From a virus, in IMG/VR virus record IMGVR_UViG_3300020724_000005: 64,000 nt of DNA. One strand, written 5' to 3'. A model generated the notes under the pieces. The model made no database searches, was not told where the DNA came from, and saw only the letters and a program-made list of their open reading frames with translations. The position numbers and the translations under genes are program-made. Shown here in pieces: positions 10,159 to 54,015 of the stretch (positions are counted from its first letter, which is position 1; the number at the start of each line of letters is the position of its first letter).

Positions 10159-10167
10159 TATAAATAT
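10159..10167 (-). promoter_or_regulatory. Promoter-like motif ATATTTATA
   Basis: Only 3 nt upstream of the ATG at 10155, just downstream of the MCP terminator. Confidence 0.4.
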
Positions 10168-13813: not shown

Positions 13814-14446
13814 ATGGATCATCTCAAAATTTACAATAGGATCATTGCAAAGGCTAAATTAGAAGGGAGAAAAAAACTTTCTAGAGATCATAATGATTAT
13901 GTCTACTACGAAGCTCATCATATCATTCCAAGATGTTTAGGAGGTATGAATGATAAAACTAATATAGTACTACTTACAGCTAGAGAGCATTTTATCGTCC
14001 ATTGGTTATTATATGAAACTGATAATGGAAATGTAAAATTAGCTTTGGCATTTTTTATGATGTGTAATACTAAAGATCACAATCAATTAAGATACATTCC
14101 AAGTTCTAGAATTATAGAATATTCAAAAAATCAACACTCTAAGTATCACCACTCAAAACTACCTAAATTTAAAAAAATAAATTCTGATTTAAGAAAAGGA
14201 AAATCTATAGTAGAACAGTTTGGAAAGCAAAAAGCTTTAGAATGTTCAATTAAAAAATCTAATTCTTTAAAACTGAGCTATCTAAATGACCCCACACTAT
14301 CAAAAAGAAAAAGTGATTCTATGAAAGGAAAAAATAAAATTGTTCGTAAATTTACATGCCCACATTGCGGAAAAATAGGAGGAATTTCTACTATGAAACA
14401 GAAACATCTTCCTATATGTAAATCAGCTCAAACAGCAAATCCCTGA
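13814..14446 (+). CDS. Free-standing HNH homing endonuclease
   Basis: YYEAHHIIPRCLGGMNDKTNIVLLTAREHFIVHWLL (H-N-H) plus a C-terminal CPHCGK zinc motif. It is the only + strand gene in a 38-kb minus block. The first ATG is at 13814 (the track start 13754 is a TTG). Paralog of 33082..33852. Confidence 0.85.
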   Translation: MDHLKIYNRIIAKAKLEGRKKLSRDHNDYVYYEAHHIIPRCLGGMNDKTNIVLLTAREHFIVHWLLYETDNGNVKLALAFFMMCNTKDHNQLRYIPSSRIIEYSKNQHSKYHHSKLPKFKKINSDLRKGKSIVEQFGKQKALECSIKKSNSLKLSYLNDPTLSKRKSDSMKGKNKIVRKFTCPHCGKIGGISTMKQKHLPICKSAQTANP

Positions 14447-15061
14447 TTGTAAACAGATGATCTCTGAAATTAACTTATGAATTCTAGAATATTTATCTAC
14501 TGATACAGAATGATCTATCGATTCTTTAAGCCCTTTTTTGCCTTCTTGGTGCATATAGGAACCGAAATTTGAGGGTTGCGAAACAAAATCCCACCCAATA
14601 AGATCTAAATCGTCTTCTACCTGCACCAATCCTTCTCCTATTTGTGTAACTGATCCCATAGCTCTTGATGATATACCCACTGAGAGGTTATTCTCAAACA
14701 GCGTCTTTAGGATGTTTCCGGATGGTGTAGGGAGTATTTCAACTCTGCCATATAGATCTTTGCCTTCCCACCATATTTCCATGATGTTGTGGCTTACGTT
14801 CTTTAAGTTGATGATGCTTGTTTCTGGATGGTCTAATTCTCCAAATGCTCTTCTTTCTTTTATAGGTCCTTCAGCATATTTCTGTGCTTGAGACATAAGG
14901 ATATCATGCGGATAGATTCGTTGATTTGCATTGGGAATATCAGCAGAAGACAGCTTACCGACAACTACCATATTACTATTTCCACGAAGTCCTTCTTTAA
15001 GGTGACTAAGAGGTTTAAATACTGAATACTCTATGAGAAGTTGTGGTTTCATATTATACAT
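14423..15061 (-). CDS. Prohead core protease, T4 gp21-like
   Basis: 212 aa (same length as T4 gp21). MKPQLLIEYS resembles the T4 NEPQLLIETW N-terminus, and the GELDHP motif is present. It is positioned upstream of the scaffold and MCP. An alternative ATG lies at 15052. Confidence 0.8.
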   Translation of the reverse strand: MYNMKPQLLIEYSVFKPLSHLKEGLRGNSNMVVVGKLSSADIPNANQRIYPHDILMSQAQKYAEGPIKERRAFGELDHPETSIINLKNVSHNIMEIWWEGKDLYGRVEILPTPSGNILKTLFENNLSVGISSRAMGSVTQIGEGLVQVEDDLDLIGWDFVSQPSNFGSYMHQEGKKGLKESIDHSVSVDKYSRIHKLISEIICLQSGICCLS

Positions 15062-16370: not shown

Positions 16371-17354
16371 TCATTTGAGTTTTTTGTGTTTTACGTAAAT
16401 GCTCTTTATCATCTCTGTCATCTTTTCAAGAGACCTTTTTGTGTGAGTGGTCTCGTTTACCATTCCAGCAGTAGTCAGATCGCTTTTAAGAGTAGCAAGG
16501 TACTCCACCATTCTATTGACCTCGGCCAGCTTCTTTCTCACTAGGCCAACTCCAGTGTGGTACTGTCCAGCTGCATCTCTCTCACGTGTTGCTTTTTTGA
16601 ATCTAGAGTAGCTCTCTTGGAGTTCTTCTGATTCGTCCCACAGCGCTTTGTATTGGAATCCTCCTGTGGAAGGACGATTGGGTATTGAAGGGGCTGGCGT
16701 GAAACCAAACTTATCAACAGCATAATTCTTTTTAAGTTTTCCTGCTGCGAGCTTTGGTTCTTTGTCTTTTGATTCTTTTGCTGATGGAGCAACTGACGTA
16801 TACTGCATAGGAGATCCTGTCACTATCGTGCCGTCTTCTTTCTTTGCAGATATTCTATTCTTGCCATTATCTTTGAATATCTTAGTAATCACTGCTTTTT
16901 CTCCAGCATGATATACGCTGCTTCCTACTTTTACTTCTTTGCCGTCTCTAGTCTCTGCTGTAGGTTGATCTTTAAAAGCAAAAGAACTTCCTGGCTTGAA
17001 CTTTCCAGGCTCTCCCTTTTTTATGTTAGACGGATCTGGAGTCCTATAATCTTTTTTACTATAAGATTCTTTCATTTTTTTCTTTGGCTTATCAAGAGCT
17101 TGAGCGTATTGCATGCCTGAACCAGGGGTGAACGTGGCTCCGCCTGAACCTACTCCGCCTCCAGTAGCTGACATCTCTTCCATGGTATTAGGAGCTTTAC
17201 GGATGATGTCTTTGGCCTCCTCAGCTGTTATCTTTCCAGACTCTACAGCAGCAAGCAACGTATCTATGAGATGCTCTGCCATGTCCATTTCTTCTTGGCT
17301 AGGCTGATGCTCACTGCCACGCATCCTATCTACCATCGATTGCATATCACTCAT
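16371..17354 (-). CDS. Prohead-associated protein candidate
   Basis: 327-aa ATG ORF whose start overlaps the upstream gene's stop by 4 nt. It shares an ATGG.(S/G).GATFT.G.G.Q.A box with the MCP N-terminal region. Confidence 0.6.
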   Translation of the reverse strand: MSDMQSMVDRMRGSEHQPSQEEMDMAEHLIDTLLAAVESGKITAEEAKDIIRKAPNTMEEMSATGGGVGSGGATFTPGSGMQYAQALDKPKKKMKESYSKKDYRTPDPSNIKKGEPGKFKPGSSFAFKDQPTAETRDGKEVKVGSSVYHAGEKAVITKIFKDNGKNRISAKKEDGTIVTGSPMQYTSVAPSAKESKDKEPKLAAGKLKKNYAVDKFGFTPAPSIPNRPSTGGFQYKALWDESEELQESYSRFKKATRERDAAGQYHTGVGLVRKKLAEVNRMVEYLATLKSDLTTAGMVNETTHTKRSLEKMTEMIKSIYVKHKKLK

Positions 17355-18256: not shown

Positions 18257-21200
18257 TTATTCTTTGATGTTTCTTTCATCTAAAAGCCCACCTGTTTCAC
18301 TTTGGTTCTCAAACAGGGACACCTTCTTGCCCGCAAACATCTTTGCCATGCTGTCTTTATTCTGAAGATACACCGCTTTAGTGCTTTCAAAGCTCAATGG
18401 TCCACCTTTATATTCTACCTTATCTTCTCCGCGTTCCATGCTAGATCCCATTCCTTTTCTGCCTATTGGATCTCTACCAAACGCACTTTTGTCAGTTCCG
18501 ATGATCGATTTGTACTTTTCAGGCCTTCCTGGCATCTTCACTGGCTCATTAGGATTTGTTTCGTTGTAGCCGTCTGGAACGTCTAAGGTAGGTTTTCCGC
18601 CGTACAGTCCTGCTATCTGGGAAGGAGTTCCGTATGCTGTGCCTGACTCTAGAGGATCGTTTCCTTCTGTCTCTATCTGATCGTATCTGAATTTGTTCTT
18701 TTGGTCTTCGATGATCATGTCTTGGAGCTCACCAAACGAATCAGGAGAAAGGTGGAATATGTTTTCCCAGATGTACTCTTTAGGAAGTATCGCTCCTTCA
18801 ACAGCTTGAGTTGCCAGATCGATCTTCTCTTTGAACATCGCTATCCTCTCCTGGTCGTATATGATGGACGGATTTGTCAGGCTCAGGGTGAAGTTTGCCA
18901 TGCCTTCGTCTGTGTATCCGTTTGCATATAGATGAACTAGAGCTATCTTCTTGAGCTCTGATACTATGATCCTCTGCAGTCTTTCTACAGTACGAGCAAA
19001 CCTGATGTCTTCTGCCGCGAGGGTAGCTTTACCTGTGAGGTCTTTTTCGTATCCCATGAACGCCTTTGGTATCTTCAACGCTGCGAATAGCTTTTCTCTA
19101 AAGTATATGACGTCTTCTATCGCATTGTACTCCAGGCCTTTCGCCGTATCTATCCTTGTAGACGTATCATTGCCTCTTACAGGAACTATGAAGTCTTCTA
19201 GTAGGTTCTGTTGGTTGTACTTTAGGTTGTATTGTCCTGTGTTAGGATCGATCAATGGAGTCTTCTTCATCTTGTTGATCATCCTCTGAACGTAGTTCTC
19301 TACCTCGTTTGGTGGTATCGCTCCAACGTTCGTGTAGAATATCCTTCTCTCTGGGGCACGAGTGATCCTATGGATCAACATGGCATCTTCTATGAGCGTA
19401 TACTGTTTAAACAGCTTTCTTGCTGGCTCTAGGTATGATCTGCCATAGGGAAGATAGTTGACGTCTCCAATGAGCCTGAAATGTGCCATCTCGTAGTTAT
19501 CAAACCACACTCCTGGGTCTTGGTTGTTGAAAGCCGAAGTGTATCCAGATGTTGCTGCCAATGCTGCGTTAGGATCAAACTTGAATCTCACCTCATTAGG
19601 GTTGTTCGGGTTGTATCCTTCCTGGCGCACTATGTTGTATGCTGAAAATGGAATTACATTATACACGCCAAATTTATCAGAGATCTCCATCTTTAAGTAG
19701 AAGTCCCCGTACTTGCACATGTTTCTTATCCAAGACCATAGATTGAACTCTATGTTGAGCACTGAGTAGAATAGGTTTTCTAAGATCTTCTGTATGTTTT
19801 CGTCTGAAGACCTTATAGTCAGTACTTGACCCTGTTCATTTTTGAGTGTACAATTGTGTGTATATATCTTAGACCCGTCTTTAGCCTCTATAGCAAATAT
19901 GTGATTGTCTCCTGCATTTACTATGTCATAAACATCTTCATATCCGCATTCTTCTATTGATACAACTTTATGATTAGATGATTTTGCAAAATCTTCTAAA
20001 GTTGAATATCCATTACCCAACACTATTCTTCTCAACTTATTGATAGTAATAGAATTACTATTACAAAAATCTGATACTAAAAATCTCTTTCCCTCTTTGT
20101 AAGTATTATTGCAATATGACCTAAATTTAATTATAGTATCAGTGCTATGGTTAGAAAGTATTTTATTTATTAGGGTTTTAGTATTATTACACTTATACAC
20201 AGCAAAGAGATCTCTAATTATTTTTCTCCACTCAAATGTTATAATATTAAGTTCTTTTTGTATATCTCCTAAAATATTTTTGTGGGGATCATTTTTTATT
20301 CTATCTATTATATATGCTAAGTTTATAGATTTTTTTCTAGTAGTTTGTGTATTATATCTACCATTTTTTTCTTTTGAAATTTTATATCCTTTTCCATACA
20401 TTCCATTTTTAGATCCACGGTGTCCATATACGATTTTTCTTTCTTCTGAACTCAAATTTTCCATGTAACTTTTCATGGAATCTGATTTCTTTTTCAAAAA
20501 AGACTGCTTATCTACATTTTCCCAAAAATGTTTTTGTCCTTCCATTAATTTTACGTAGTAATCATTTTTTTTGGGCGGATCTGAATTTATACTAACCCAA
20601 AGGTTTTTATTATATTCAGCATGAATTTTATTATGCTCATTCCATCCTACCCACTTTAGAAAATTAGGATTATTATTTCTTTTATCAAAAGAGTCATGGT
20701 GTACTACTGGTTTTTCTTTTGCTGGAATCTGATTCCTCTGTTCTTTTAAAAATGTAACCTGATTTGCTACTATCCTATGAGTATATTCGAATTTATCCCC
20801 ACTCCATATTTTTTCATATCCAGGCATGCTAGTTCCTTCTGATATTTTAGTAGAAAGAGCTAATATACTAGTACTAATTTTTATGTCACTAGTAGTTATT
20901 TGAGATCCACTGCTATCTATCCAAATATGATTAGATGTAGCTTTTACTTCAGTTCCATCATCGAAGGTTATTTTATATACCCTTTTCTTCCCATTATAGG
21001 CCACTTTTTCAGCTTTTACTGGACGGAATTCATTAGTTTTTTCATCTAAACCATATATCCATATGTCTTTTGCTCCTGAGTCGTGCAATTCTTTTATGGT
21101 CTTCTTAGTTCCATCTAAAAGAGGTATAACTGTATCTGCTCCAAGACATTCATCCGCTATAATATCCAATGCTGAAGCTATGATTGCATCTGTATCCATA

Positions 21201-21457
21201 GAATCATAATCAGCGTAGATCTGTACTCTCGCTGACTGATAGTTCATCGCCAGATTCAGGTTGACACCATACGCAGTAGAGGTGGTATAAACTTTGTGGA
21301 ACCTATCAATAAGAGAATTAGTCTGAATAACACCATTGGATTGGATATTATCTGTATCCATGACCGAAAGCATATTGCCCCCATCATTGCGGATAATAAC
21401 GTCCGTACTAAATAGTCTGCGGAGTGTAGAAAATAAATTCTGTTGTATTTCTGCCAT
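18257..21457 (-). CDS. Portal protein (gp20-like) interrupted by an intein
   Basis: 1066 aa. The N-extein ends ...YADYDSMDTDAIIASALDIIADE (resembles the T4 gp20 ALDIYADE block) and the C-extein starts CTLKNEQ.... The exteins total 634 aa. It is located between terL and the prohead protease. Confidence 0.8.
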   Translation of the reverse strand: MAEIQQNLFSTLRRLFSTDVIIRNDGGNMLSVMDTDNIQSNGVIQTNSLIDRFHKVYTTSTAYGVNLNLAMNYQSARVQIYADYDSMDTDAIIASALDIIADECLGADTVIPLLDGTKKTIKELHDSGAKDIWIYGLDEKTNEFRPVKAEKVAYNGKKRVYKITFDDGTEVKATSNHIWIDSSGSQITTSDIKISTSILALSTKISEGTSMPGYEKIWSGDKFEYTHRIVANQVTFLKEQRNQIPAKEKPVVHHDSFDKRNNNPNFLKWVGWNEHNKIHAEYNKNLWVSINSDPPKKNDYYVKLMEGQKHFWENVDKQSFLKKKSDSMKSYMENLSSEERKIVYGHRGSKNGMYGKGYKISKEKNGRYNTQTTRKKSINLAYIIDRIKNDPHKNILGDIQKELNIITFEWRKIIRDLFAVYKCNNTKTLINKILSNHSTDTIIKFRSYCNNTYKEGKRFLVSDFCNSNSITINKLRRIVLGNGYSTLEDFAKSSNHKVVSIEECGYEDVYDIVNAGDNHIFAIEAKDGSKIYTHNCTLKNEQGQVLTIRSSDENIQKILENLFYSVLNIEFNLWSWIRNMCKYGDFYLKMEISDKFGVYNVIPFSAYNIVRQEGYNPNNPNEVRFKFDPNAALAATSGYTSAFNNQDPGVWFDNYEMAHFRLIGDVNYLPYGRSYLEPARKLFKQYTLIEDAMLIHRITRAPERRIFYTNVGAIPPNEVENYVQRMINKMKKTPLIDPNTGQYNLKYNQQNLLEDFIVPVRGNDTSTRIDTAKGLEYNAIEDVIYFREKLFAALKIPKAFMGYEKDLTGKATLAAEDIRFARTVERLQRIIVSELKKIALVHLYANGYTDEGMANFTLSLTNPSIIYDQERIAMFKEKIDLATQAVEGAILPKEYIWENIFHLSPDSFGELQDMIIEDQKNKFRYDQIETEGNDPLESGTAYGTPSQIAGLYGGKPTLDVPDGYNETNPNEPVKMPGRPEKYKSIIGTDKSAFGRDPIGRKGMGSSMERGEDKVEYKGGPLSFESTKAVYLQNKDSMAKMFAGKKVSLFENQSETGGLLDERNIKE
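19853..21148 (-). mobile_element. Portal intein (432 aa) with an HNH + NUMOD-like endonuclease domain
   Basis: Block A CLGADTVIPLLDG (Cys codon 21146-21148). Block B TSNH. HNH core VVHHDSFDKRNNNPNFLKWVGWNEHNKIH. NUMOD3-like GSKNGMYGKG. Terminal VYDIVNAGDNHIFAIE...IYTHN followed by the +1 Cys (Asn codon 19853-19855). Confidence 0.85.
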
Positions 21458-21467
21458 ATTTTATTTT

Positions 21468-22895
21468 TTATCCCAATAGCCAATTCAGATCCTCTATAGT
21501 ATTTCCATTTACTGTAGTGATCTCCATTTGATATGGATTATTATTTATAAAGTTATTTGTATTGTAAACTGGGGATTCTCCCATCTTCTTCATCCCGTCT
21601 AATGTAGCATATGTTAAACTCTCTGCCGTCCTTCTGAATCTTATAGAAGAGTCTCTCATATACATCGATATCGCAAAAGACATCACAAGGTCATCATTGT
21701 ATCCTTGCATTGCTTGTGGTTTTGAGTTCTTCCATATGAACACTCTCAATTCTTCTAAAAGCCTAAGTGATCTTATCTTTACTTGCTTTGTCTCTATGAA
21801 GTCTCTCATCCTCTCTATAATAAGAGGTCTTGATGCTGACGACATAGTGAATCCAGGAACTAATGAGTCTGTTGCTCCGTATCTTTCAAGCCTCTTCTCA
21901 TTGTCTAAACTAAAATCTGTCCTATGCGAGTAGTGTAGGTTACTGTAACCGCTCTCGATCAAAGTCTGAAGAACGTCCCAACCTATGTTTGCATTCTCCA
22001 CAGCGACCAAGGCATTGTTGTACTCGAAAGCCGCTGCCAGTATTGTCTTTGCAAACTCTCTGGTGTCGCACTGGGCTTGGTATTCTGCTACCTGGGTCAA
22101 TGTATCTACGTCTATGATGTGGAACGCGGAATAGTCAGCTCCGTCTCCTCTTGCTACGTCTGCACATAACAGATAGGTTTTTAGAGGGCTTGGGTACTCC
22201 CATATCCACATTGCCTTATCGAGTCCCCTTCTTTCGATAGGCTCTAAGACCATGTTTTCTTCATACCAACTTAGTATGTCTGGGATGATGACAGTATTAC
22301 CCGATGAACTAAAGTCACAATCACACTCTTGCGCAGCCATTCTAACTCCAAGGTCTTGATCTTGTCTATCTCTCCAAGGTTGACTTCTTTCTGGGTGTAC
22401 TGTCCAAGGAAGTGATACTGGTACAAAGCTGTTTTCTTTTTTCTGCGCTTTTATATATGTTTTGTGGAACCAATTACCTACGCCGTTTGGAGTCGATAAT
22501 GCTATACATTTACCACCGGTTGCCAAGGTTTGCTGAGCAGAACCAAAAAGATCCTCTGCATTATCTATGAAAGCGCAATTATGACTAACTACATCATTTG
22601 TATAATATTCGTTTTTATTCTTTACGTTTACTAAATCATAAACTTCGAATTCTTCTTCTATAATATCAATAGAAATAATAGAAATATTCCCAAATAGTAT
22701 ATCGCCTACTCTCAATAAACACGCTTCTAGAAACTCACCATTTGGAAATTTAAGACAATGCCCCTCTGTACACTTTATAAAAGAATTATTTGATAATTTT
22801 ATATGAAAAATGATATTAGTAATCTTTGATAAAATTCCATCAAAATCACTAAACCCGGTTGGAGTTAAAATTTCATATTTAGTATTTTTTATCAT
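21468..22895 (-). CDS. terL: Terminase large subunit, C-terminal fragment preceded by a 106-aa C-intein
   Basis: Starts MIKNTKYEILTPTGF...TEGH (block B)...VYDLVNV...NDVVSHN|CAFIDNAEDLF. CAFI matches the T4 gp17 DECAFI Walker-B continuation. The 369-aa C-extein carries the nuclease/translocase part. Confidence 0.9.
   Translation of the reverse strand: MIKNTKYEILTPTGFSDFDGILSKITNIIFHIKLSNNSFIKCTEGHCLKFPNGEFLEACLLRVGDILFGNISIISIDIIEEEFEVYDLVNVKNKNEYYTNDVVSHNCAFIDNAEDLFGSAQQTLATGGKCIALSTPNGVGNWFHKTYIKAQKKENSFVPVSLPWTVHPERSQPWRDRQDQDLGVRMAAQECDCDFSSSGNTVIIPDILSWYEENMVLEPIERRGLDKAMWIWEYPSPLKTYLLCADVARGDGADYSAFHIIDVDTLTQVAEYQAQCDTREFAKTILAAAFEYNNALVAVENANIGWDVLQTLIESGYSNLHYSHRTDFSLDNEKRLERYGATDSLVPGFTMSSASRPLIIERMRDFIETKQVKIRSLRLLEELRVFIWKNSKPQAMQGYNDDLVMSFAISMYMRDSSIRFRRTAESLTYATLDGMKKMGESPVYNTNNFINNNPYQMEITTVNGNTIEDLNWLLG
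22578..22895 (-). mobile_element. Split-intein C-fragment (IntC, aa 1-106 of the 21468..22895 ORF)
   Basis: Contains the TxxH block B (TEGH) and blocks F/G (VYDLVNV..., VVSHN), followed by the +1 Cys. Confidence 0.8.
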
Positions 22896-23599
22896 TTTAA
22901 AAATTGTCTCATCGATTTTAATAACTGGGGTTGTTCTTCATAATTAATCATATTCGCATTTTTCTTAAACCAACTATCTGAAATTATTACCATTTTATAA
23001 GAATTATCTTTACACCATGATAATGCGCTTTTAAATTTAATTATATTTTTAGGATCCGATTTTAATTTTGATGGTTTTATTTCATATAAAATTTTTTTGT
23101 CAAAATCAACGAAATCTACTATATAAGATGATACTTTATTTTGATATTCATATTGTATTCTTACTTTTTCGTAGTCTAGATGTTGATTTAATAGAAAAAA
23201 TACAGCTTCCCAATTACTTCTGAATTTTTTTATGTCATCTTTAATTTTAATATAGCTTTTCCAATTTGTCCAACTATTAGTTATGCATGGCGTAAATTTA
23301 CCTTCTTTTATAAGTCTCTTTAATCTTATTGAATTCTGTCTTCGTGCTTCTATTACTCTAGGACTACTCTTAATCTTTTCTTTATGTTCCTGTGTCGATA
23401 CAGTTTTTTTATTTGATTCTACTCTTTTTCTTTTTGTTTCTTCTGAATCTTTATGGTGATTATGTGAAGTCCAACATGGTTGAGTACAGTATTTTTTATT
23501 TTCTTTTTTTGTTAAATATCTCTTTCCACATCCGGAACATTCTTTTTCTATAGGTTCTTTCCAATTCCACGAGTGTTTTTTAATATTCTCTATAAACAT
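22892..23599 (-). CDS. Free-standing putative homing endonuclease (Zn-ribbon + PD-(D/E)xK-like C-terminal domain) lodged between the intein halves
   Basis: 235 aa. N-terminal CSGCGK..x..C..PC, a basic middle region, and a C-terminal IVDFVDFDKKILYEIKP (D...ExK pattern). It has its own promoter-like motif 10 nt upstream, and its stop overlaps the IntC start (ATGA). Confidence 0.6.
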   Translation of the reverse strand: MFIENIKKHSWNWKEPIEKECSGCGKRYLTKKENKKYCTQPCWTSHNHHKDSEETKRKRVESNKKTVSTQEHKEKIKSSPRVIEARRQNSIRLKRLIKEGKFTPCITNSWTNWKSYIKIKDDIKKFRSNWEAVFFLLNQHLDYEKVRIQYEYQNKVSSYIVDFVDFDKKILYEIKPSKLKSDPKNIIKFKSALSWCKDNSYKMVIISDSWFKKNANMINYEEQPQLLKSMRQFLK

Positions 23600-23609
23600 T
23601 TGCTTTTAC

Positions 23610-23618
23610 TATAAATAT
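23610..23618 (-). promoter_or_regulatory. Promoter-like motif ATATTTATA
   Basis: 10 nt upstream of the endonuclease ATG at 23599. It abuts the IntN stop codon. Confidence 0.5.
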
Positions 23619-24217
23619 CAATAATGTCCAGATAATTTATTTTTTAATTCATTTATTGTTGTCTTTTCTATTTCGCCAGTATTTTTATTCTTAATTAATA
23701 TTTCAGTATCTCCAGTTACACATTCATCCATCACAAGAAGAGATACTGCTTCAGAACGAGCTGAGTCGCTTGCTCCTGACACTGCCTTTATCTGAGAACC
23801 GTTTGTGAGTCGTAAACTTAGCCTGTTGTCTTCAGTAGCTCCTATCTTCAACCAAGCTGGAAGGTTATCGTATGCAAATCGTACCTTTGTGACCATATTC
23901 TTGGCCGTCTCTTGCTTTGTTGCTATGACCAGTACGTTCTTATCTTTGTGGAATACCATGAGCCAGAGCGCATAAGCAGACACCAACGTTGATATCCCCA
24001 GCTGTCTTGACTTGTTTATTATTACATTTTGGTCTCCTGAAAAGACCTTTAGCATGGATTCTTGGAATGGGTATAGATCAAAGAGCATCCTGCCTCTTTG
24101 AGGGTGTTGGATCATGTAATACTTCTTCATGAAATATACCGGGTCTGTGGCGCATTTCACAAATTCTTCTCGTATCTTATCTTTGATAGTGGATTGCCTC
24201 GTAATCGGTTCGGGCAT
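23618..24217 (-). CDS. terL: Terminase large subunit, N-terminal ATPase fragment followed by a 34-aa N-intein
   Basis: Walker A SRQLGISTL (T4 gp17 SRQLGKT-like). Walker B LLVMDE, followed directly by CVTGDTEILIKNKNTGEIEKTTINELKNKLSGHY and a stop. Confidence 0.9.
   Translation of the reverse strand: MPEPITRQSTIKDKIREEFVKCATDPVYFMKKYYMIQHPQRGRMLFDLYPFQESMLKVFSGDQNVIINKSRQLGISTLVSAYALWLMVFHKDKNVLVIATKQETAKNMVTKVRFAYDNLPAWLKIGATEDNRLSLRLTNGSQIKAVSGASDSARSEAVSLLVMDECVTGDTEILIKNKNTGEIEKTTINELKNKLSGHY
23621..23722 (-). mobile_element. Split-intein N-fragment (IntN, 34 aa)
   Basis: Block A CVTGDTEIL begins at Cys166, right after the Walker-B DE. The ORF terminates before any block B. Confidence 0.8.
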
Positions 24218-24228
24218 AAAACTTTTGT

Positions 24229-24265
24229 TTATAAATATATCGGATTTGACTGAGTATATTTATAA
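24229..24265. repeat. 11-bp perfect inverted repeat TTATAAATATA / TATATTTATAA with a 15-nt spacer
   Basis: Left arm 24229..24239, right arm 24255..24265, in the terL upstream intergenic region. Confidence 0.7.
24230..24238 (-). promoter_or_regulatory. Promoter-like motif ATATTTATA
   Basis: 12 nt upstream of the terL ATG at 24217. It forms the left arm of an 11-bp inverted repeat. Confidence 0.5.
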
Positions 24266-24321: not shown

Positions 24322-24780
24322 TTAAGTAGTTTCTTCAGGAGTCTCTGGTTTTTCCTTTGGTTTTTCTTCTTTTTTTGTTGGAAGCTCTTCTGACCTTGGT
24401 CCTTCTTCGCTCTCTGGACCTTCAGACTTTGATTTTGCTCCATATCTCTGTATCCTATTGATCGCCATAGTAGCCCTTTGGATGTCTCCTATGTTCATCA
24501 GATAGTAGCGCTTGCCTTGCACACCTGCTTCGTACGCTTTTCCCATGAACGTCATAAAGAAGTACTGATTGTTTTTTAGCAGTATCTTGAAGGTGGTCGG
24601 CTTTCCAGATATTATGAATATTCCATCCAAGTATTCTTCAAAGTTATCTCCCATCAAAGTTATTAGGTTCTTGTTGAGCCTTTTATACTTTCTCAGGATG
24701 TAGCCCATAGGATCTGCATCAAACTCTGGATTTGTGTGATCTTCATGTACTTCTTTGAGTATGTCTATCAGTTTTATCAT
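24322..24780 (-). CDS. Accessory protein with an MIKLIDILKE N-terminus (CTS-like family)
   Basis: 152-aa ATG ORF. N-terminal decapeptide shared with four other ORFs. PEK-rich C-terminal tail. Confidence 0.7.
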   Translation of the reverse strand: MIKLIDILKEVHEDHTNPEFDADPMGYILRKYKRLNKNLITLMGDNFEEYLDGIFIISGKPTTFKILLKNNQYFFMTFMGKAYEAGVQGKRYYLMNIGDIQRATMAINRIQRYGAKSKSEGPESEEGPRSEELPTKKEEKPKEKPETPEETT

Positions 24781-25040
24781 TATTTTTCTATTTGTCTTAA
24801 TGCCACTATAAGATCGAGTATTTTATCAGAAATATAATCTTCATAATCTGAACTTACTTCTTTTCCCCTAAGATAATAATCTTTCGTATAATCATCTATC
24901 TCAATATCATAAAAATCTTTTAGATCATCTATGATATCTTTATCTAACTTTTTAGATATTCTTAATTTTACTATAATATCATCTAAAGATCTTATAAGAT
25001 TATCTATATCTTTATTACTTTCTAAAAGTTTATTTGACAT
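24780..25040 (-). CDS. Small highly acidic protein
   Basis: 86-aa ATG ORF, D/E/I/K-rich (DDIIVKL...DIEIDDYTKDYY...DYEDYISD). Confidence 0.6.
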   Translation of the reverse strand: MSNKLLESNKDIDNLIRSLDDIIVKLRISKKLDKDIIDDLKDFYDIEIDDYTKDYYLRGKEVSSDYEDYISDKILDLIVALRQIEK

Positions 25041-25407
25041 ACCCTCTATCTTTTAGTTTTGATATGATATTGTCTACCTTATTTGATATCTTTTTATAGT
25101 GAGATTTCATTATAGATTCATCAAAAGATTCATCTACTCTAGATATTGGTTCTATACTATACCCAAAATAATTTTCTTTATCCTCTGGATTATAATATCG
25201 AGTTCTAGTTGTAAAAATATAATCATCAACTCTAGGATCATAGTCTTCTACTCCACGTTCCTCCCATTCATTTGATTCAACCCAACTTTCTGCTTCGTCT
25301 TTTGAATCAAAAATTCTGCTTGTAGGGAATTCTTCATCTCCATAATCTGTAAATACTACTCTGTATTTTATTATACTCTCTTTGGGTATGTCTATGAGTT
25401 TTATCAT
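25030..25407 (-). CDS. Accessory protein with an MIKLIDIPKE N-terminus (CTS-like family)
   Basis: 125-aa ATG ORF, acidic. Confidence 0.7.
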   Translation of the reverse strand: MIKLIDIPKESIIKYRVVFTDYGDEEFPTSRIFDSKDEAESWVESNEWEERGVEDYDPRVDDYIFTTRTRYYNPEDKENYFGYSIEPISRVDESFDESIMKSHYKKISNKVDNIISKLKDRGYVK

Positions 25408-25418
25408 TGTAATTATGT

Positions 25419-26018
25419 TTAAGCAACTTCTGATGCATATTCTGCTACGCTATGCATGTAATCACTAGCAAGAGTTATATATGCTGCAACCCATCCAGGA
25501 AGCTCTGTTCCTGGTTCTACCATGCTGTAAAGCTTTGATGCGTTAGATATCAGATCTTTAAGTTCAGCTCTTGCCATAGTGGCTTGGTGTCCAGAATCAG
25601 GTTTCCCCCAAACATCTCCACACTGGGCGCATTTTCCATTTACCATTTCCTCTCCACAGTCTGTGCAAACCTCTTCTGCTATTGGGTGTGTTGATTTTAT
25701 TGCATTCATATCCTGATTGTCAAATGATGGCTGCTTAAAATATCTTCTTTTTTCATTTCCGTAGTATATCTCTGGAGTCTCTGCTGGATTTGGGGTAAAC
25801 TCCTTTAAATTCCTCATCTTTGGAATAAAATGATCTTTTATCCAGTCCTGAGTCTTTTGGCTAAGCTGTTTTCTTGGAAAGTCTCTCTTAAACAGATTTT
25901 GAAGATGTAATCCTCGCTTTTTTAACTCTTTTTCTACGTAATCAGGAACATCTACTTCCATTTTTTTAGGATTTAGTGCTTCTGCTAAAAGTTTTGTTAT
26001 GAGGCTCTTTTTTGTCAT
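25419..26018 (-). CDS. Hypothetical protein with a CxxC-x7-CxxC zinc ribbon
   Basis: The track start (26048) is a GTG. The first ATG at 26016-26018 gives MTKKSLITKLL.... Zinc ribbon CTDCGEEMVNGKCAQCGD. A promoter-like motif lies 18 nt upstream of this ATG. Confidence 0.6.
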   Translation of the reverse strand: MTKKSLITKLLAEALNPKKMEVDVPDYVEKELKKRGLHLQNLFKRDFPRKQLSQKTQDWIKDHFIPKMRNLKEFTPNPAETPEIYYGNEKRRYFKQPSFDNQDMNAIKSTHPIAEEVCTDCGEEMVNGKCAQCGDVWGKPDSGHQATMARAELKDLISNASKLYSMVEPGTELPGWVAAYITLASDYMHSVAEYASEVA

Positions 26019-26036
26019 ATCTGCTGTTTTATATAG

Positions 26037-26045
26037 TATAAATAT
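26037..26045 (-). promoter_or_regulatory. Promoter-like motif ATATTTATA
   Basis: 18 nt upstream of the ATG at 26018. Confidence 0.45.
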
Positions 26046-26284
26046 CACTTAGGTTCGAACCAATCACTACACCATTTTCTAGGATCTTTTATGTCCATCA
26101 CAGCGTTTCCGTTCCATGCCTCGTAGTATTGGTTTCCACAGATGTGTTGGTCATTCTCGTAGCTGTAGTACTTGCATACTGCGCAGCTAAAGCCATCAGG
26201 ACTGTACATGAAAGGTTCATGGTTTGTTGGGAGAGTTATGTCCCCTTTGATCTCTTCTTTAAGTAAGTCTGTAAGCTTTATCAT
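26045..26284 (-). CDS. Accessory protein with an MIKLTDLLKE N-terminus (CTS-like family), Cys-rich
   Basis: 79-aa ATG ORF containing CAVCKYY...HICGN...WCSDW. Confidence 0.7.
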   Translation of the reverse strand: MIKLTDLLKEEIKGDITLPTNHEPFMYSPDGFSCAVCKYYSYENDQHICGNQYYEAWNGNAVMDIKDPRKWCSDWFEPK

Positions 26285-26288
26285 ATTT

Positions 26289-27053
26289 TTAGTTTTTTCT
26301 TCCCCACTGTATGCCTTCTTTTCCGCTTTGCAACCACATCTTTACGTAGTTCTTTTGTCTTTCTGTGGCTTTGTATCCTTGCTTTTTTATAGAGTTCATG
26401 ATCCCATCTAGGTAATCATCTTGCTTGCTCCTCTTTGCTATGTTGTTCACTCTGTTCCACTCTTGCTCTCCAAACGGCTGTAAATTCTTCCAATCTTCTT
26501 TTAGAAAGTCTGATAGCTTTATCGTCTTGCTCTCTTTAATGCTAGCAAGAGCTTTTAATTCTTTGTTTGCGTCGTCTATTTTATAGAGGTATTTTTTTAT
26601 CTTTGTAGAAAAGAAACTTACTATCTTATTGAGGTACAATTTGACTTTATCTGCAGTTGATGCTTCAGATAGTTTTCCTATGGTAAATCTAGTGGATACT
26701 TTTCTTACAGTAGACTCTTCTTCTTCTAGCTTCTTACAAACTGCTTTTGTAGCTTCATTCAGCTTGGTTAGCGCATATTCATATGCTTTTTTATATTTGT
26801 GAACTTGAGACTCATATGCCGGTTGCTTAATAGTTATTATGTAATACTCTGAAACCGCTGTTTTTTCTTCAAGCTGCTTCATTGTTTCAAACATCGGAGC
26901 TAGATCTTTTGCAAATTCACCATATTTTTTTTCCATAACTTTCATTCTGTCAGACAGCTCATCTATCTCATTTTGTAGATGGTAGAATTTTTCTAGTTGT
27001 GCAACTATTGCTGGATCCTGGATCTCAATTTCTTTAAGGTAGTTTTTTTTCAT
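26289..27053 (-). CDS. Coiled-coil protein fused to a CTS-like-family module (internal TIKLSDFLKE)
   Basis: 254-aa ATG ORF. At aa 177-186 the family decapeptide appears with ACG in place of ATG (26496..26525). Confidence 0.7.
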   Translation of the reverse strand: MKKNYLKEIEIQDPAIVAQLEKFYHLQNEIDELSDRMKVMEKKYGEFAKDLAPMFETMKQLEEKTAVSEYYIITIKQPAYESQVHKYKKAYEYALTKLNEATKAVCKKLEEEESTVRKVSTRFTIGKLSEASTADKVKLYLNKIVSFFSTKIKKYLYKIDDANKELKALASIKESKTIKLSDFLKEDWKNLQPFGEQEWNRVNNIAKRSKQDDYLDGIMNSIKKQGYKATERQKNYVKMWLQSGKEGIQWGRKN

Positions 27054-27262
27054 CTCTTTTCTTTTTTAGGACGTAATAAGATATATAAACCAAAGAACAA
27101 TCCCGCTATACAGTACAAAACGAAGTTTGCTCTCCATAAACTTCCTGTCTTTAGAAATAGCCAATATTGAACTGCATCGAACCCAAACGGGTTGAAGAAC
27201 ATCGCTGCCATCAGACAGATCGTTGCCAAGTTTTGTTTTAGTGTTTTGTTCCAAGTATTCAT
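27050..27262 (-). CDS. Small two-TMD membrane protein (holin-like)
   Basis: 70 aa. Two hydrophobic segments (LATICLMAAMFFNPFGF; FVLYCIAGLFFGLYILL) and a basic tail RPKKEKR, adjacent to the lysis genes. Confidence 0.5.
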   Translation of the reverse strand: MNTWNKTLKQNLATICLMAAMFFNPFGFDAVQYWLFLKTGSLWRANFVLYCIAGLFFGLYILLRPKKEKR

Positions 27263-27310
27263 GTCTACTATCGGGGTCCATATTACGGGGTTAACGTTAA
27301 CAATACAAGA

Positions 27311-27955
27311 TCAATTCATAGAGAACTTGAATCCTGTTAATTTTTCAACATCTGCGATTTGTACCTTCCAGTGGTCTATCCCTTTAGGTTTATCTGTCGT
27401 GTTATCAAATATGTAAGCTTCATACGCCTTTGTCTTTTTTACATAGATCACCTTCCAACATTTAGTAGGCACGGTAGTAGTTCCTATCTTTTTTGCAGAT
27501 CCAATAGAACCACACCAAACGTAGACTGAATCTTGGTTGTCTACTATAAGCCTTGTTTTCGTTTCCAATGACTTCCAATCTCCAGCATTCAGAGAGTGGT
27601 ATTGAGCCGCCATGTTTGAGAAATAAAAACACTCTGCTTGTTGTTTTGCGCCAAAGCAAAGGTTGTCTGCTGCTGGACACATATGGCCACGGTCTGTGCC
27701 TGAACCAACATAGTCCTTTGCCAAATTCGTTTCTGAAGGAAGAAGAGGATCTGGAGCAAATTGGTCTTTCCTTGCCAGGGGACTTTTGCAACCAACTCTC
27801 GCTTTTGTGTCCCACCATTGAACCAAAACTGGGTAATGAAAGGACTTACTGTACGTGGTCTTGTATGCCTCGTGTACTAAAGTTACTGTGTCTTGTGCTG
27901 AGCTGGTTAGTATGCAAAACAGTATTGCTGCAACCGTAGCGATTATATTTTTCAT
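27311..27955 (-). CDS. Secreted DNA/RNA non-specific endonuclease (Serratia NucA / Endonuclease_NS family)
   Basis: Signal peptide MKNIIATVAAILFCILTSSAQ. Active-site block GTDRGHMCPAAD. Downstream SNMAAQ...LNAGDWKSLE, matching the NxxPQ...N.G.W..LE pattern. Confidence 0.8.
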   Translation of the reverse strand: MKNIIATVAAILFCILTSSAQDTVTLVHEAYKTTYSKSFHYPVLVQWWDTKARVGCKSPLARKDQFAPDPLLPSETNLAKDYVGSGTDRGHMCPAADNLCFGAKQQAECFYFSNMAAQYHSLNAGDWKSLETKTRLIVDNQDSVYVWCGSIGSAKKIGTTTVPTKCWKVIYVKKTKAYEAYIFDNTTDKPKGIDHWKVQIADVEKLTGFKFSMN

Positions 27956-27959
27956 GTTT

Positions 27960-28559
27960 TTATTTTAAAAGTGAATAATACTCATTGAAGTGTTTGATTC
28001 TATCGTCATTTCCTATAGTCCCACCGTTCACTCTCTTTGTGATCTTGGTGACTGTATCAACTGTTGCGCCTTCGTCTGCTATCTTGTGAAGACCGTTTTT
28101 GTGGAAGAACCACGCTGCAGAAGCCAAAGGGTATTTAGTTGCTACCAGATCAGGACTAGCCACACAATCTTCGTTTATTGCTTTTGAAAACGCAGCGTAG
28201 TTGTCTTTTCCTGTCAGTTGAATACAGCCGCGACCACGGAATTTGTATCCTTCTCCAGATGATTCAGGACCGTTGCCCATGCGGCCTCCATAGACTAAAT
28301 TAGCTATCTTTTCGGGTTTTCTTTCATACTCCAAAGCTTTTGCGTCTGTTGGGAAATACTTGCCGAATATGCTACGAAGTCCTTTTGCTCCGTAATTCAG
28401 ATTCTCGTTTAACACTTTGAAACCACCTGATTCGTGTCCTGCTTGAGCAAGGAAATGCGCTAAACGCAGCGGGGTGTTCAATTCAAACTTTGCCATCGTA
28501 TCTGGCAGTTGAGCGATGATGTTGTCTGGAACGTGTCCTTTTAAACTCTCTAGATTCAT
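27960..28559 (-). CDS. Endolysin, glycoside hydrolase family 19 (chitinase-like lysozyme)
   Basis: AHFLAQAGHESGGF, NLNYGAKGL, YGGRMGNGPESSGEGYKFRGRGCIQLTGKDNY: the classic GH19/COG3179 blocks. Confidence 0.85.
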   Translation of the reverse strand: MNLESLKGHVPDNIIAQLPDTMAKFELNTPLRLAHFLAQAGHESGGFKVLNENLNYGAKGLRSIFGKYFPTDAKALEYERKPEKIANLVYGGRMGNGPESSGEGYKFRGRGCIQLTGKDNYAAFSKAINEDCVASPDLVATKYPLASAAWFFHKNGLHKIADEGATVDTVTKITKRVNGGTIGNDDRIKHFNEYYSLLK

Positions 28560-28574
28560 ACTTTATTTTTGTTT

Positions 28575-29282
28575 TTATTTTTTAAAATAGTAGGCGTGTA
28601 TCATGTCTGCCGTCATTCCAAGCACTGCTGCTACAAGACCGCCTTCTATGAATGCCCTTGTGGTTTTGTACCTGGTAGCTTTCTCTTCATATTCAAGCTT
28701 GTACTTATAGTCCTCAAGTTTCATCTCTGTCGTGGTCTTGTATAGTTCAAACTTACCTTGTACATCTGTCTTTGACATATCTACCCTCAGTCTTTCAAAG
28801 TCTAACCGGTAGTTCATAGCCTTGATGGTATCATTCAGACTAGCAACATTCTGGGTCAGCTTGTAGTTCTTATCGGCTATCAAGTTCAGTTCACCTTCAA
28901 GATCTCTGTTCTTTATCCATACAGCATGACTATAATCACTCAAGAAAAGATTGGCAGCATTTAAAGTATCTACCAACCTATGGAAACTCTTCATGCTATC
29001 TTTGAACATCGTAAACCTTCTGTTCATGTCCTTTCCTTGCTGTACTGTCATCACTACTACTGTATCATCATCCAGGATCCTAGTCATGGGGTATTGCGCC
29101 TGTGATTTAGGAGTCGGAAGCGCTGTCGGTAATTGAGCAGTATTCAGGGCAGGTGTAGCCGTAACACTATTCGTTATCGCCGGAACTGGGTTTGCTGTCG
29201 CTATTTGGTTCGTTGACTGGCAGTAGGTTGAAATGCTTATTAACATTAACAACAGTGTCACCAAGCTTCGCTTTAAGTTCAT
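28575..29282 (-). CDS. Lipoprotein-like envelope protein (spanin candidate)
   Basis: Signal peptide MNLKRSLVTLLLMLISISTYC, then a Pro-rich segment, coiled-coil-like repeats and a weakly hydrophobic C-terminus GGLVAAVLGMTA. The start overlaps the upstream gene by 116 nt in another frame. Confidence 0.5.
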   Translation of the reverse strand: MNLKRSLVTLLLMLISISTYCQSTNQIATANPVPAITNSVTATPALNTAQLPTALPTPKSQAQYPMTRILDDDTVVVMTVQQGKDMNRRFTMFKDSMKSFHRLVDTLNAANLFLSDYSHAVWIKNRDLEGELNLIADKNYKLTQNVASLNDTIKAMNYRLDFERLRVDMSKTDVQGKFELYKTTTEMKLEDYKYKLEYEEKATRYKTTRAFIEGGLVAAVLGMTADMIHAYYFKK

Positions 29283-29580
29283 TGTTTTCTTTTTTTAATA
29301 CTTTGACTTCTGTATGTAAAACTTCTATATTCTTTGCAGTTTTTTCGACTTTTGTGATGATCATAGAATCGCTTTTTATGCTCTTCTGTCCCATAGATAT
29401 CACGTTCTTTTTACTCTTTTCCAGTATGGTATCTACAGGTAATACGTCTGCTTGAGGAGCTGATACCGTAGTTGAGTCTTTGTGGGAGATGTATTTATCT
29501 TTCAAAGACATCAACTGATTTCTTCCAAAAAAGGCTGCTGCAGCTAAAGCTGATATCGCCATCACTATTTTCTGTTTCAT
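29167..29580 (-). CDS. Type-II membrane coiled-coil protein (i-spanin-like)
   Basis: 137 aa. N-terminal TMD IVMAISALAAAAFF, then a heptad-like VLHTEVKVLKKENNELKAKL. Confidence 0.5.
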   Translation of the reverse strand: MKQKIVMAISALAAAAFFGRNQLMSLKDKYISHKDSTTVSAPQADVLPVDTILEKSKKNVISMGQKSIKSDSMIITKVEKTAKNIEVLHTEVKVLKKENNELKAKLGDTVVNVNKHFNLLPVNEPNSDSKPSSGDNE

Positions 29581-29582
29581 TC

Positions 29583-29924
29583 CTACTTTATTTTACCGAG
29601 TTGTTGTAACACCGCTATTTTGGATTCAGCCGCTGCTAAAGTGCTATCAGATCTTCTAAGTTGATTGCTTAAGTTCTCTACTCTGACTTCTAACGCCTGT
29701 ATCTTTTTGCTTTGGTTTTCTATCTGGCCAGTATAATTCATCTTGCCATCTACGTATAAATATCCGATCGCGATGAGAACTATGAATAACATCCCTTTTA
29801 CAGGATCTTTACTGAAGTCCTTGAAGCTTATCGGCATCAATGAAGGTGCTTTGACAGCAGTCTCTTTGGGCACAACAGCTTTAGGCTTTGCAGCCTTAGG
29901 CTTTACAGTTTTAACAGTAGTCAT
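29583..29924 (-). CDS. Membrane-anchored coiled-coil protein (lysis-cassette associated)
   Basis: 113 aa. Lys-rich N-terminus, TMD GMLFIVLIAIGYLYV, then a coiled-coil tail. A promoter-like motif lies 15 nt upstream. Confidence 0.55.
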   Translation of the reverse strand: MTTVKTVKPKAAKPKAVVPKETAVKAPSLMPISFKDFSKDPVKGMLFIVLIAIGYLYVDGKMNYTGQIENQSKKIQALEVRVENLSNQLRRSDSTLAAAESKIAVLQQLGKIK

Positions 29925-29939
29925 TTAGATAGGGTTTGA

Positions 29940-29948
29940 TATAAATAT
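29940..29948 (-). promoter_or_regulatory. Promoter-like motif ATATTTATA
   Basis: 15 nt upstream of the ATG at 29924, at the head of the lysis cassette. Confidence 0.5.
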
Positions 29949-29966
29949 CGAAGTGTTTTCGTAACC

Positions 29967-30437
29967 TTATGATTTTACAAGCTTAGTCTTATCTACAAAA
30001 TCTGCTCTTCTTACTGATGGTATCTTTCTGACTCTGTCTTCTATTGTTTTTATAGTACTTGTGTCAAAAGTTTCAAATGGGGCTGGGTCTATCTTGATGC
30101 TGATGTCCACAACATACTTTTTTAACCTTGCTGCCGATGGCTGACGGTTATTTGTAACACGTACGATGGTAACTCCAGTTAGAGCCCTGATGTCAGAGAG
30201 GATGTCTGCAAGTGATCTCTTTGTAGTATCTGCCATGAGTCTGCCTTCTATCTGATAGATCTTAGGACTGAATGTTTCTTTGACAGTAGAATTTATATCT
30301 TTAGCCGCTTTCACAGCTTTTTTATATGCTTTACTGCCTTTACGAGCAGGTTTCTCTCCCCTAGCTCTTTTTGCTCGGATGTTCGCCCAGAGTCCAGGCT
30401 TTTCTATTTCCTTCAGTATGTCTATGAGCTTTATCAT
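29967..30437 (-). CDS. Basic protein with an MIKLIDILKE N-terminus (CTS-like family)
   Basis: The track ORF is extended to 30491. The ATG at 30435-30437 forms an ATGA overlap with the upstream stop and yields MIKLIDILKEIEKPGLWANIRAKRARGEKP.... Confidence 0.7.
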   Translation of the reverse strand: MIKLIDILKEIEKPGLWANIRAKRARGEKPARKGSKAYKKAVKAAKDINSTVKETFSPKIYQIEGRLMADTTKRSLADILSDIRALTGVTIVRVTNNRQPSAARLKKYVVDISIKIDPAPFETFDTSTIKTIEDRVRKIPSVRRADFVDKTKLVKS

Positions 30438-32479: not shown

Positions 32480-32488
32480 TATAAATAT
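32480..32488 (-). promoter_or_regulatory. Promoter-like motif ATATTTATA
   Basis: 14 nt upstream of the ATG at 32465. Confidence 0.5.
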
Positions 32489-34342: not shown

Positions 34343-34351
34343 TATAAATAT
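34343..34351 (-). promoter_or_regulatory. Promoter-like motif ATATTTATA
   Basis: 4 nt upstream of the ATG at 34338. Confidence 0.4.
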
Positions 34352-44306: not shown

Positions 44307-44314
44307 TATTTATA
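44306..44314 (+). promoter_or_regulatory. Promoter-like motif, variant GTATTTATA
   Basis: 4 nt upstream of the ATG at 44319. Confidence 0.35.
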
Positions 44315-54006: not shown

Positions 54007-54015
54007 ATATTTATA
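54007..54015 (+). promoter_or_regulatory. Promoter-like motif ATATTTATA
   Basis: 22 nt upstream of the ATG at 54038. Confidence 0.5.

Follow-up and report, generated by a model that had tools for sequence, protein, structure and literature searches.

The capsid-targeting sequence (CTS) of the phage T4 internal proteins was reportedly described by Mullaney and Black in 1996. It is carried by the internal proteins IPI, IPII and IPIII and by Alt (reviewed in PMC9026906 and PMC3012670). For IPIII, packaging needs no more than the first ten residues; within them, targeting depends on residues 4 and 7 and processing on residues 8 and 10, and an Asp in place of the last residue prevents cleavage (PMC9026906). 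The propeptide of T4 gp24, which is removed by gp21, is also treated as CTS-like, and the inner-body and ejection proteins inside the heads of the giant phages phiKZ and SPN3US are targeted by N-terminal propeptides that are cut after Glu by a gp21-related protease, with paralogues that can have identical N-termini (PMC5694885). The ADP-ribosyltransferase (ART) domains of the polyvalent-protein clade are predicted to be virion-delivered, T4 Alt being a packaged ART (PMC5512222). Here we analyse a ten-residue N-terminal peptide, MIKLIDILKE and its close variants (the tag), which heads otherwise unrelated open reading frames (ORFs) in a 64,000-nucleotide (nt) stretch of viral DNA, IMG/VR record IMGVR_UViG_3300020724_000005 (the window). 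We favour, with moderate confidence, the reading that the tag is a capsid-targeting propeptide cleaved after Glu10 by an S77 protease in a distant aquatic lineage of T4-like myoviruses; our confidence is no higher because all that would follow translation (docking, cleavage, packaging, injection and the action of the cargo) is inferred.

The tag copies and remnants in the window, with the lengths of their ORFs in amino acids (aa), are as follows.

24751-24780, minus strand: MIKLIDILKE, start of the 152-aa ORF 24322-24780
25378-25407, minus strand: MIKLIDIPKE, with Pro at position 8, start of the 125-aa ORF 25030-25407
26255-26284, minus strand: MIKLTDLLKE, start of the Cys-rich 79-aa ORF 26045-26284
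30408-30437, minus strand: MIKLIDILKE, start of the 156-aa basic ORF 29967-30437
10129-10155, minus strand: MKLIDLLIE, a nine-residue variant, start of the 105-aa ORF 9838-10155
26496-26525, minus strand: TIKLSDFLKE, internal, with ACG replacing ATG, residues 177-186 of the 254-aa ORF 26289-27053
25800-25817, minus strand: MRNLKE, a degenerate internal remnant, residues 68-73 of the 199-aa ORF 25419-26018

A preliminary description of this DNA, made from the letters alone, had placed every copy it named correctly, the genes lying on the minus strand; the two further copies it mentioned (the nine-residue variant and the internal copy at 26496-26525) are both present, and it missed the second internal remnant at 25800-25817. 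The 105-aa ORF lies directly downstream of the major capsid protein (MCP) gene. The ATG of ORF 29967-30437 overlaps the upstream stop codon as ATGA, and this tag ATG is the true start, rather than the TTG given in the ORF list 18 codons upstream. A six-frame scan of the window for KL.D[ILVF].[KIR]E gave 8 matches, 6 of them from the tag family, versus 0.04 in shuffled sequence. With the leader removed, the five tagged cargos of the window form five separate BLAST clusters, in agreement with the earlier statement that the downstream sequences are unrelated.

Comparison with relatives accounts for several of the irregular copies. Orthologues of the 125-aa protein in loci L109 and L011 read (GTG)IKLANILKE, so the Pro at position 8 of MIKLIDIPKE is derived. 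Within ORF 25419-26018 the remnant reads ...IPKMRNLKE|FTPNPAETPE, and its orthologue in locus L063 (4721-5155) is a separate ORF starting MIKLASLLNE|FTPNPAETPE; judged from this comparison, the reading of 25800-25817 as the remnant of a formerly stand-alone tag is well supported. The copy at 26496-26525 may mark a once-separate tagged gene that was fused to its upstream neighbour. This is plausible rather than proven because the C-terminal part of the 254-aa ORF resembles a stand-alone tagged 77-aa ORF in locus L101 only weakly (E = 0.11).

Viral contigs were searched with a degenerate DNA pattern encoding the decapeptide, and the identical codons in permuted order served as the control. The pattern occurred in at least 116 viral-contig stretches versus 2 for the control, an enrichment among relatives that the preliminary description had proposed looking for; with this control, an artefact of AT-rich coding composition was rejected. 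Among the matches listed, all lie at ORF starts, and approximately 165 N-terminal tag occurrences compare with approximately 10 internal ones in 298,593 residues. Homology that is independent of the leader (first 25 residues removed) joins 114 of the 117 sequences in one network, 87 loci have a protein directly in common with the window, and genes for TerL, portal, protease and MCP recur. When looser variants are counted, these matches comprise 150 unique tagged proteins, which fall into 68 BLAST-unrelated cargo clusters.

A scan of 596 Gb of bacterial and archaeal genomes gave only 5 matches: 2 fall on contigs of this phage lineage that had been mis-binned, and 3 in chance ORFs of 15-28 residues. 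The motif is thus not equally common at the N-termini of host proteins, the circumstance that had been named as refuting the idea of packaged proteins, and a generic host preference at protein starts was rejected, none of the 5 matches lying in a genuine cellular gene. The tag is a trait of one phage lineage and is absent from host genomes. Judged by the capsid protein, the cultured phages that come closest are Flavobacterium phage immuto (52%), Microcystis phage Mel-JY01 (47%) and Rhodothermus phage RM378 (34%), and the exact proteins of the window are also present on a 157,862-bp metagenomic contig. Phage immuto carries a tag copy, MIKLIDLLTE, on its ORF 24569-24994. No prior description of the tag was found in the literature searched for the peptide strings and for phage immuto.

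Residue frequencies were taken from 144 ten-residue tags among the matches listed; the search pattern also permitted Asp at position 10.

Position 1: Met, 100%
Position 2: Ile, 97%
Position 3: Lys, 100%
Position 4: Leu, 100%
Position 5: variable
Position 6: Asp, 85%
Position 7: Ile or Leu, 97%
Position 8: Leu, 92% (Ile, 6%)
Position 9: Lys, 69%
Position 10: Glu, 100% (144/144)

Asp did not occur once at position 10 despite being permitted. Positions 5 and 9 are the most variable, as are the residues beyond position 10. Selection acts on the peptide, since Leu4 is encoded by all six codons (TTA 72, CTA 45, CTT 10, TTG 8, CTC 5, CTG 4); Ile2 uses three codons, and Asp6 is divided between GAC (63) and GAT (60). 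The tags of unrelated cargos are 78% identical, and those of pairs with cargo identity below 40% are 84% identical. The window copies share 23-27 of 30 nt pairwise, with identical runs of just 8-13 nt, which bears out the synonymous codon differences noticed at the outset. In a 150-base alignment around each copy, conservation ends at the 30 coding nt of the tag, and the flanks contain no conserved DNA on either side and no conserved promoter or cassette. A signal peptide was rejected by inspection; the tag lacks a hydrophobic core and contains two acidic and two basic residues.

These properties resemble those of the T4 CTS in several respects. Both are ten-residue N-terminal peptides on otherwise unrelated proteins, both end in (L/I)-x-Glu in a genome that encodes a gp21-type S77 protease, and the positions critical in T4, 4, 7, 8 and 10, are conserved in the tag, whose positions 5 and 9 vary. 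The cargo genes of this lineage are, as in T4, highly variable between relatives. When the T4 CTS was scanned identically as a positive control, it gave 12 matches on 6 unrelated cargo clusters in the same database, the same signature on a smaller scale than the 68 clusters in at least 116 partial loci found here. The closest sequence analogue is the propeptide of T4 gp24, MAKINELLRE as read from the T4 genome, with which the tag shares the pattern M-[A/I]-K-[I/L]-x-[E/D]-L-L-[R/K]-E. That propeptide belongs to one structural protein of T4, whereas here its equivalent heads dozens of different accessory proteins; a separate paralogue of gp24 was not seen in the window. Of the T4 sequences, the nearest are the gp24 propeptide and the scaffold N-terminus rather than MKTYQEFIAE, which the preliminary description had cited. 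The propeptides of phiKZ and SPN3US differ in being at least 100 residues long, in having no single short consensus across families and in being cleaved at S/A/G-x-E, whereas the tag is short and ends in L/I-x-E.

The head genes that bear on the fate of the tag are the following.

14423-15061, minus strand: prohead protease of the gp21 type (Pfam Peptidase_S77 PF03420, E = 6.1e-24; PHROG head maturation protease, E = 7e-47)
10243-11955, minus strand: MCP of the Gp23 family (Pfam Gp23, E = 5e-75)
11994-13529, minus strand: acidic scaffold protein of 511 aa, assigned from its composition and its place between protease and MCP

The protease shares 29% identity with T4 gp21, and its LDHP and GISSR motifs align with LNH85P and GVS140SR of T4. 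The gp21-like protease pointed out earlier at this position is thus a genuine Peptidase_S77 with matching His and Ser motifs, and we presume that it is the enzyme that removes the tag.

The N-termini of the head proteins themselves resemble the tag. The window protease begins MYNMKPQLLIE (T4 gp21 begins MNEPQLLIE), the window MCP begins MNLVNSLLQE|S and that of a relative MSNLNALLE|S, and scaffold orthologues in relatives begin MANSKLLKE|A or MATNRDLLKE|A. In the T4 genome the corresponding N-termini are MAKINELLRE|S (gp24), MNEPQLLIE|T (gp21), MLKEQLIAE|A (gp22) and MEGLIE|A (gp67), and among known systems the gp24 propeptide and the (L/I)-x-E sites near the N-termini of gp21, gp22 and gp67 count among the closest counterparts of the tag. 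N-proximal [LI]-x-E sites are found in 15 of 71 window ORFs versus 6 expected (p = 8e-4), and 10 of the 15 belong to the head module or to the island beside it. Six relatives encode a tagged acidic protein, 291-574 residues long, between the protease and the scaffold or MCP. The MCP maturation site is likely QLVTE|TSAATGG, by comparison with SFLTE|AEIGG of T4.

We propose that the amphipathic decapeptide would dock a newly made protein onto the scaffold core or the inner shell of the prohead during assembly, where it would mimic the propeptides at the N-termini of scaffold and capsid proteins; the scaffold is the probable docking partner. Once the shell is closed, the S77 prohead protease would cut after Glu10 in the L-K-E context and free the mature cargo inside the head, from which the cargo would exit with the DNA at the next infection. 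Since the tag resembles the head-loading signal of T4, it may mark proteins that are injected into the host.

In the AlphaFold 2 (AF2) model of the 152-aa protein the tag forms a helix of low confidence (residues 4-11) that stands detached before a confident domain (residues 21-115), and in that of the 156-aa protein it is likewise a helix detached ahead of the folded domain. The cargo of the former is as follows.

24322-24750, minus strand: cargo of the 152-aa protein, a globular alpha/beta domain and a disordered acidic/Pro-rich tail

This cargo has 66 database homologues. Its orthologues carry MIKLKDILKTILKE|T or MIKLADILKIIIKE|V, and the (I/L)-K-E junction is kept directly before a conserved [VT]HEDH despite a 4-residue insertion in the tag. 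In distant lineages the same domain stands behind a different leader of approximately 20 residues (class 2, below), for example MKNKAVLRYLIEQEVRKFLRE|Q. The family of the Cys-rich 79-aa cargo has 8 tagged members among the matches listed, and the orthologue variant MISLIKILQE retains the hydrophobic pattern and Glu10. The 156-aa cargo is modular, with a PGLWANIRAKRARGEKP module followed by a ferredoxin/ACT-like domain, and each of these modules occurs elsewhere behind class-1 (MIKL), class-2 or short leaders. A tagged 97-aa ORF (MIKLIDILKE) in locus L066 adjoins homologues of the neck genes of the window and contains IDPETG, as does the 105-aa ORF of the window; these two were compared by eye only.

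The basic PGLWANIRAKRARGEKP module (residues 14-30 of ORF 29967-30437) is found in 652 database proteins at E <= 0.001. It nearly always follows an acidic [LIV]-x-E-E stretch, whether a leader, a zinc ribbon or another domain lies upstream.

Recognisable functions come from relatives. Pfam and PHROGs gave no usable match for the 152-, 125-, 79- and 105-aa window proteins. In searches of the PDB with AF2 models, the 152-aa cargo had no significant fold match (best E = 0.43), and the 156-aa cargo had a generic ferredoxin/ACT-like match and nothing more specific. Tagged proteins of relatives match Zeta_toxin (E = 5e-12; kinase), the ART-PolyVal ADP-ribosyltransferase (E = 2e-10), Fe/Mn superoxide dismutase and DUF5872, with weaker matches to GNAT, HAD, 2H-phosphoesterase/Acb1, ABC1 kinase, LRR and alpha/beta-hydrolase families. 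The effector-type domains are found only among these proteins of relatives and in none of the window's own cargos. Part of this effector repertoire, notably ART-PolyVal, and the proposed delivery with the DNA are shared with the polyvalent proteins (Iyer et al. 2017, PMC5512222). Polyvalent proteins combine 2-15 disparate domains per polypeptide, whereas the tagged proteins are separate and small, mostly 50-400 aa with one recognisable domain, each with its own tag.

The tagged genes form a fast-turnover island beside the terminase and head genes. The island adjoins the terminase, and its content differs even where the core proteins of relatives are 70-95% identical. The tag itself also varies between near-identical phages: on a 338-aa protein its start codon is ATA in loci L109 (approximately 8875-8920) and L011 (approximately 2733-2778) and ATG in locus L110 (7329-8345), a natural presence/absence polymorphism of the tag.

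At least three recurrent leader classes besides the MIKL tag coexist in the lineage, a further difference from the T4 CTS. The class-2 leader is approximately 20 aa long, with the consensus MKKSELKxLIKEEIxKxLxE, and heads 29 unique cases of unrelated ORFs among the matches listed.

44319-44384, plus strand: class-2 leader MTKSQLFRKMIREEVQKALREE, heading the 156-aa ORF 44319-44789
Locus L014, 11955-12179 and 12869-13501: further class-2 leaders
Phage immuto (L117-L120), 102294, 102880 and 113188: further class-2 leaders

Homologous cargos swap between class-1 and class-2 leaders, and the swap suggests that the two are functionally equivalent. Another leader recalls the C-terminus of the scaffold, whose motif is conserved in the lineage: it reads ...FIARMQKLAGI in the window (11994-12035, minus strand), SRWQKLAGIIK in immuto and AERFKQLANIK in others. 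The motif recurs N-terminally in small, unrelated ORFs, for example MKKQILSEEFSRMQKLAGIISE, where it is followed by an I-[ST]-E site, and it also ends two non-scaffold proteins.

Locus L001, 392-745: scaffold-C-terminus-like motif
Locus L038, 1626-2012: scaffold-C-terminus-like motif
Locus L073, 226-825: scaffold-C-terminus-like motif
Phage immuto, 25061-25456 and 111675-112139: scaffold-C-terminus-like motif

By its resemblance, this leader looks like mimicry of the coat-binding end of the scaffold. A third recurrent N-terminus, M(E/AD)NFDLKKFLVENKL, is common to several otherwise different ORFs.

Window, 61864-62412, minus strand: M(E/AD)NFDLKKFLVENKL
Phage immuto, 1803-2318, 103806-104354, 117631-118632 and 118632-118931: M(E/AD)NFDLKKFLVENKL
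Locus L014, 13952-14467: M(E/AD)NFDLKKFLVENKL

A broader extension of the capsid-targeting reading, which we hold tentatively and at somewhat less than even odds, is that these leaders constitute a modular system of address labels. Interchangeable leaders would imitate the termini of scaffold and capsid proteins, each ending in an S77 site, and would route many dozens of unrelated enzymes and toxins, Zeta kinase, ADP-ribosyltransferase and superoxide dismutase among them, into the prohead to be injected. Class 1, MIKLxDxLKE, would then imitate the N-terminal propeptide of the scaffold or MCP, and class 4, ...F.RMQKLAGIISE, the C-terminal coat-binding motif of the scaffold. The principle is that of the known T4 CTS; what is new is the consensus, the scale and the fact that several interchangeable leader classes occur together. 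The similarities suggest that scaffold and capsid proteins were the source, their termini having been copied to give the targeting signal.

Phage proteins that enter the cell alongside the DNA are known for only a few model phages. If the capsid-targeting reading is true, the tag would allow the injected proteome of uncultured aquatic phages to be read from metagenome sequence alone, and the injected repertoire would far exceed that of T4, with at least 68 cargo families that include toxin-type and ADP-ribosylating enzymes. The list of cargos would then point toward new host-takeover and anti-defence functions. The tag may also provide a tool, as a second peptide, orthogonal to the existing one, with which phage heads could be loaded with foreign proteins.

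Several observations weigh against capsid targeting. The tag and the T4 sequence MKTYQEFIAE have only Met1 and Glu10 in common, together with a hydrophobic residue at position 8, and the P1' residue is often Ile or Val in this lineage, whereas Ala, Ser or Thr was seen at the T4 sites. The cargos of this lineage are mostly not small basic proteins, unlike those of the T4 CTS: three of the five window cargos are acidic (isoelectric point 4.7-6.2), the 156-aa cargo (10.3) being strongly and the mature 105-aa cargo (8.8) mildly basic. For some cargos, such as the HAD phosphatase, superoxide dismutase and P-loop kinases, a place inside the head is not obvious, and Pfam, PHROGs and fold search identified no function for those of the window. 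Clear copies of the tag number just one or two in the cultured relative immuto. The promoter-like motif TATTTATA described below precedes 15.8% of tagged and 14.7% of other genes, and given this lack of enrichment it cannot argue for late expression or co-expression of the tagged genes. No virion proteome of the lineage was found in the literature, packaging and cleavage being inferred. On balance, the T4-style CTS with an (L/I)-x-E site that the preliminary description had proposed withstood all the computational tests applied and is favoured by lineage specificity, selection on the peptide, fit to the T4 residue map and resemblance to protease substrates; the cargos are at most candidates for the anti-defence role that it had also proposed.

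We consider it unlikely that the tag is a docking helix for another partner, such as a phage chaperone, a host hub protein, a membrane site or the replication compartment, whether cleaved or not. The AF2 models, in which the tag is predicted to be an amphipathic helix detached from the cargo fold, would suit such a role; metabolic-type cargo enzymes would not need to be packaged, and the promoter-like motif found before structural genes is not particularly associated with tagged genes. A docking helix of this kind leaves unexplained, however, the invariance of Glu10 (never Asp) and the S77 rule at positions 8 and 10, the resemblance to the N-termini of scaffold, MCP and protease, the tagged protein inside the head module and the leader that copies the scaffold C-terminus. 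A further possibility is that the tag is an N-terminal degron or timing signal, read by a host protease such as ClpXP or Lon or by the phage protease in the cytoplasm, that would limit the lifetime of potentially toxic accessory proteins. N-terminal hydrophobic or basic motifs can act as ClpX recognition signals, and several cargos are indeed toxin-type enzymes (Zeta toxin, ADP-ribosyltransferase); no evidence links the tag to a cytoplasmic protease, and head-propeptide resemblance, head-module location and S77-site logic would go unaccounted for, so that we regard this as the least probable explanation, and a very improbable one.

The preliminary description had offered as its alternative that the conserved 5' end is a recombination handle. 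More generally, the 30 bases could be a DNA or mRNA cassette, either such a handle or an AT-rich enhancer of translation start, with the peptide as a by-product. The location of the tagged genes in a variable island that differs between close relatives, the AT-rich codons of the tag and the presence, in some loci, of TATTTAT at a spacing of exactly 11 nt before the tag are compatible with this idea, and promoter and tag may sometimes move together. Against it, nothing beyond the 30 nt is conserved and identical runs reach just 8-13 nt; all synonymous Leu, Ile and Asp codons are used with the amino acids fixed (GAC about as often as GAT); the tag stays approximately 84% identical where cargos diverge to below 40%; and it is absent from cellular genomes. 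In the PeSL-type cassettes of T4-type phages, a promoter/stem-loop unit flanks shuffled genes, whereas the tagged genes share no upstream DNA and TATTTAT is not enriched at them. A recombination handle is therefore weakly supported at best, and a nucleic-acid role of the 30 bases is quite improbable. All three alternatives fail to account for the Glu10 rule, the likeness to protease substrates, the location in the head module and the leader class that mimics the scaffold.

The octamer TATAAATA occurs 22 times in the window versus 5 expected, a four-fold enrichment (for example at 10159-10166, 24230-24237, 26037-26044, 29940-29947, 32480-32487, 34343-34350, 44307-44314 and 54008-54015). At 17 of the 22 sites it is oriented such that (A)TATTTATA stands on the coding strand, 4-25 nt before a start codon. 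Genes preceded in this way include those for TerL and for neck, tail and head proteins; for the 105-aa ORF 9838-10155 the distance to the start is 4 nt. TATAAATA/TATTTATA is probably a promoter element that belongs to the lineage itself and gives very short leaders. Identity of TATAAATA with the T4 late promoter was rejected, the motif being mostly in reverse orientation; it is also not enriched at tagged genes.

Some head-module proteins contain a stretch of the form ...E|(M/S)(S/T)(A/T)TGG(G)V.., like the predicted MCP site QLVTE|TSAATGGVSNG. The carriers are as follows.

Window, 16371-17354, minus strand: ORF with the TGG(G)V stretch
Locus L097, 3242-3685: small ORF upstream of the protease, with the TGG(G)V stretch
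Locus L113, 2133-2579: small ORF upstream of the protease, with the TGG(G)V stretch
Phage immuto, 123355-123576: small ORF upstream of the protease, with the TGG(G)V stretch

Judged by this shared stretch, they may be prohead core proteins that have the cleavage context and N-arm of the MCP.

Two further head genes of the window are interrupted.

18257-21457, minus strand: Gp20 portal with an intein, 1066 aa (Pfam Intein_splicing; PHROG HNH endonuclease)
21468-24217, minus strand: large terminase, split in three ORFs

The portal intein carries an HNH-like insert, and the portals of relatives are approximately 640 aa long. The terminase consists of a 199-aa N-terminal part ending in the intein-like CVTGDTEI, a 235-aa endonuclease-like ORF (22892-23599) and a 475-aa C-terminal part; in relatives TerL is uninterrupted at approximately 530 aa, or 902 aa with an intein. 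In its arrangement the fractured terminase resembles a split intein with a free-standing homing endonuclease.

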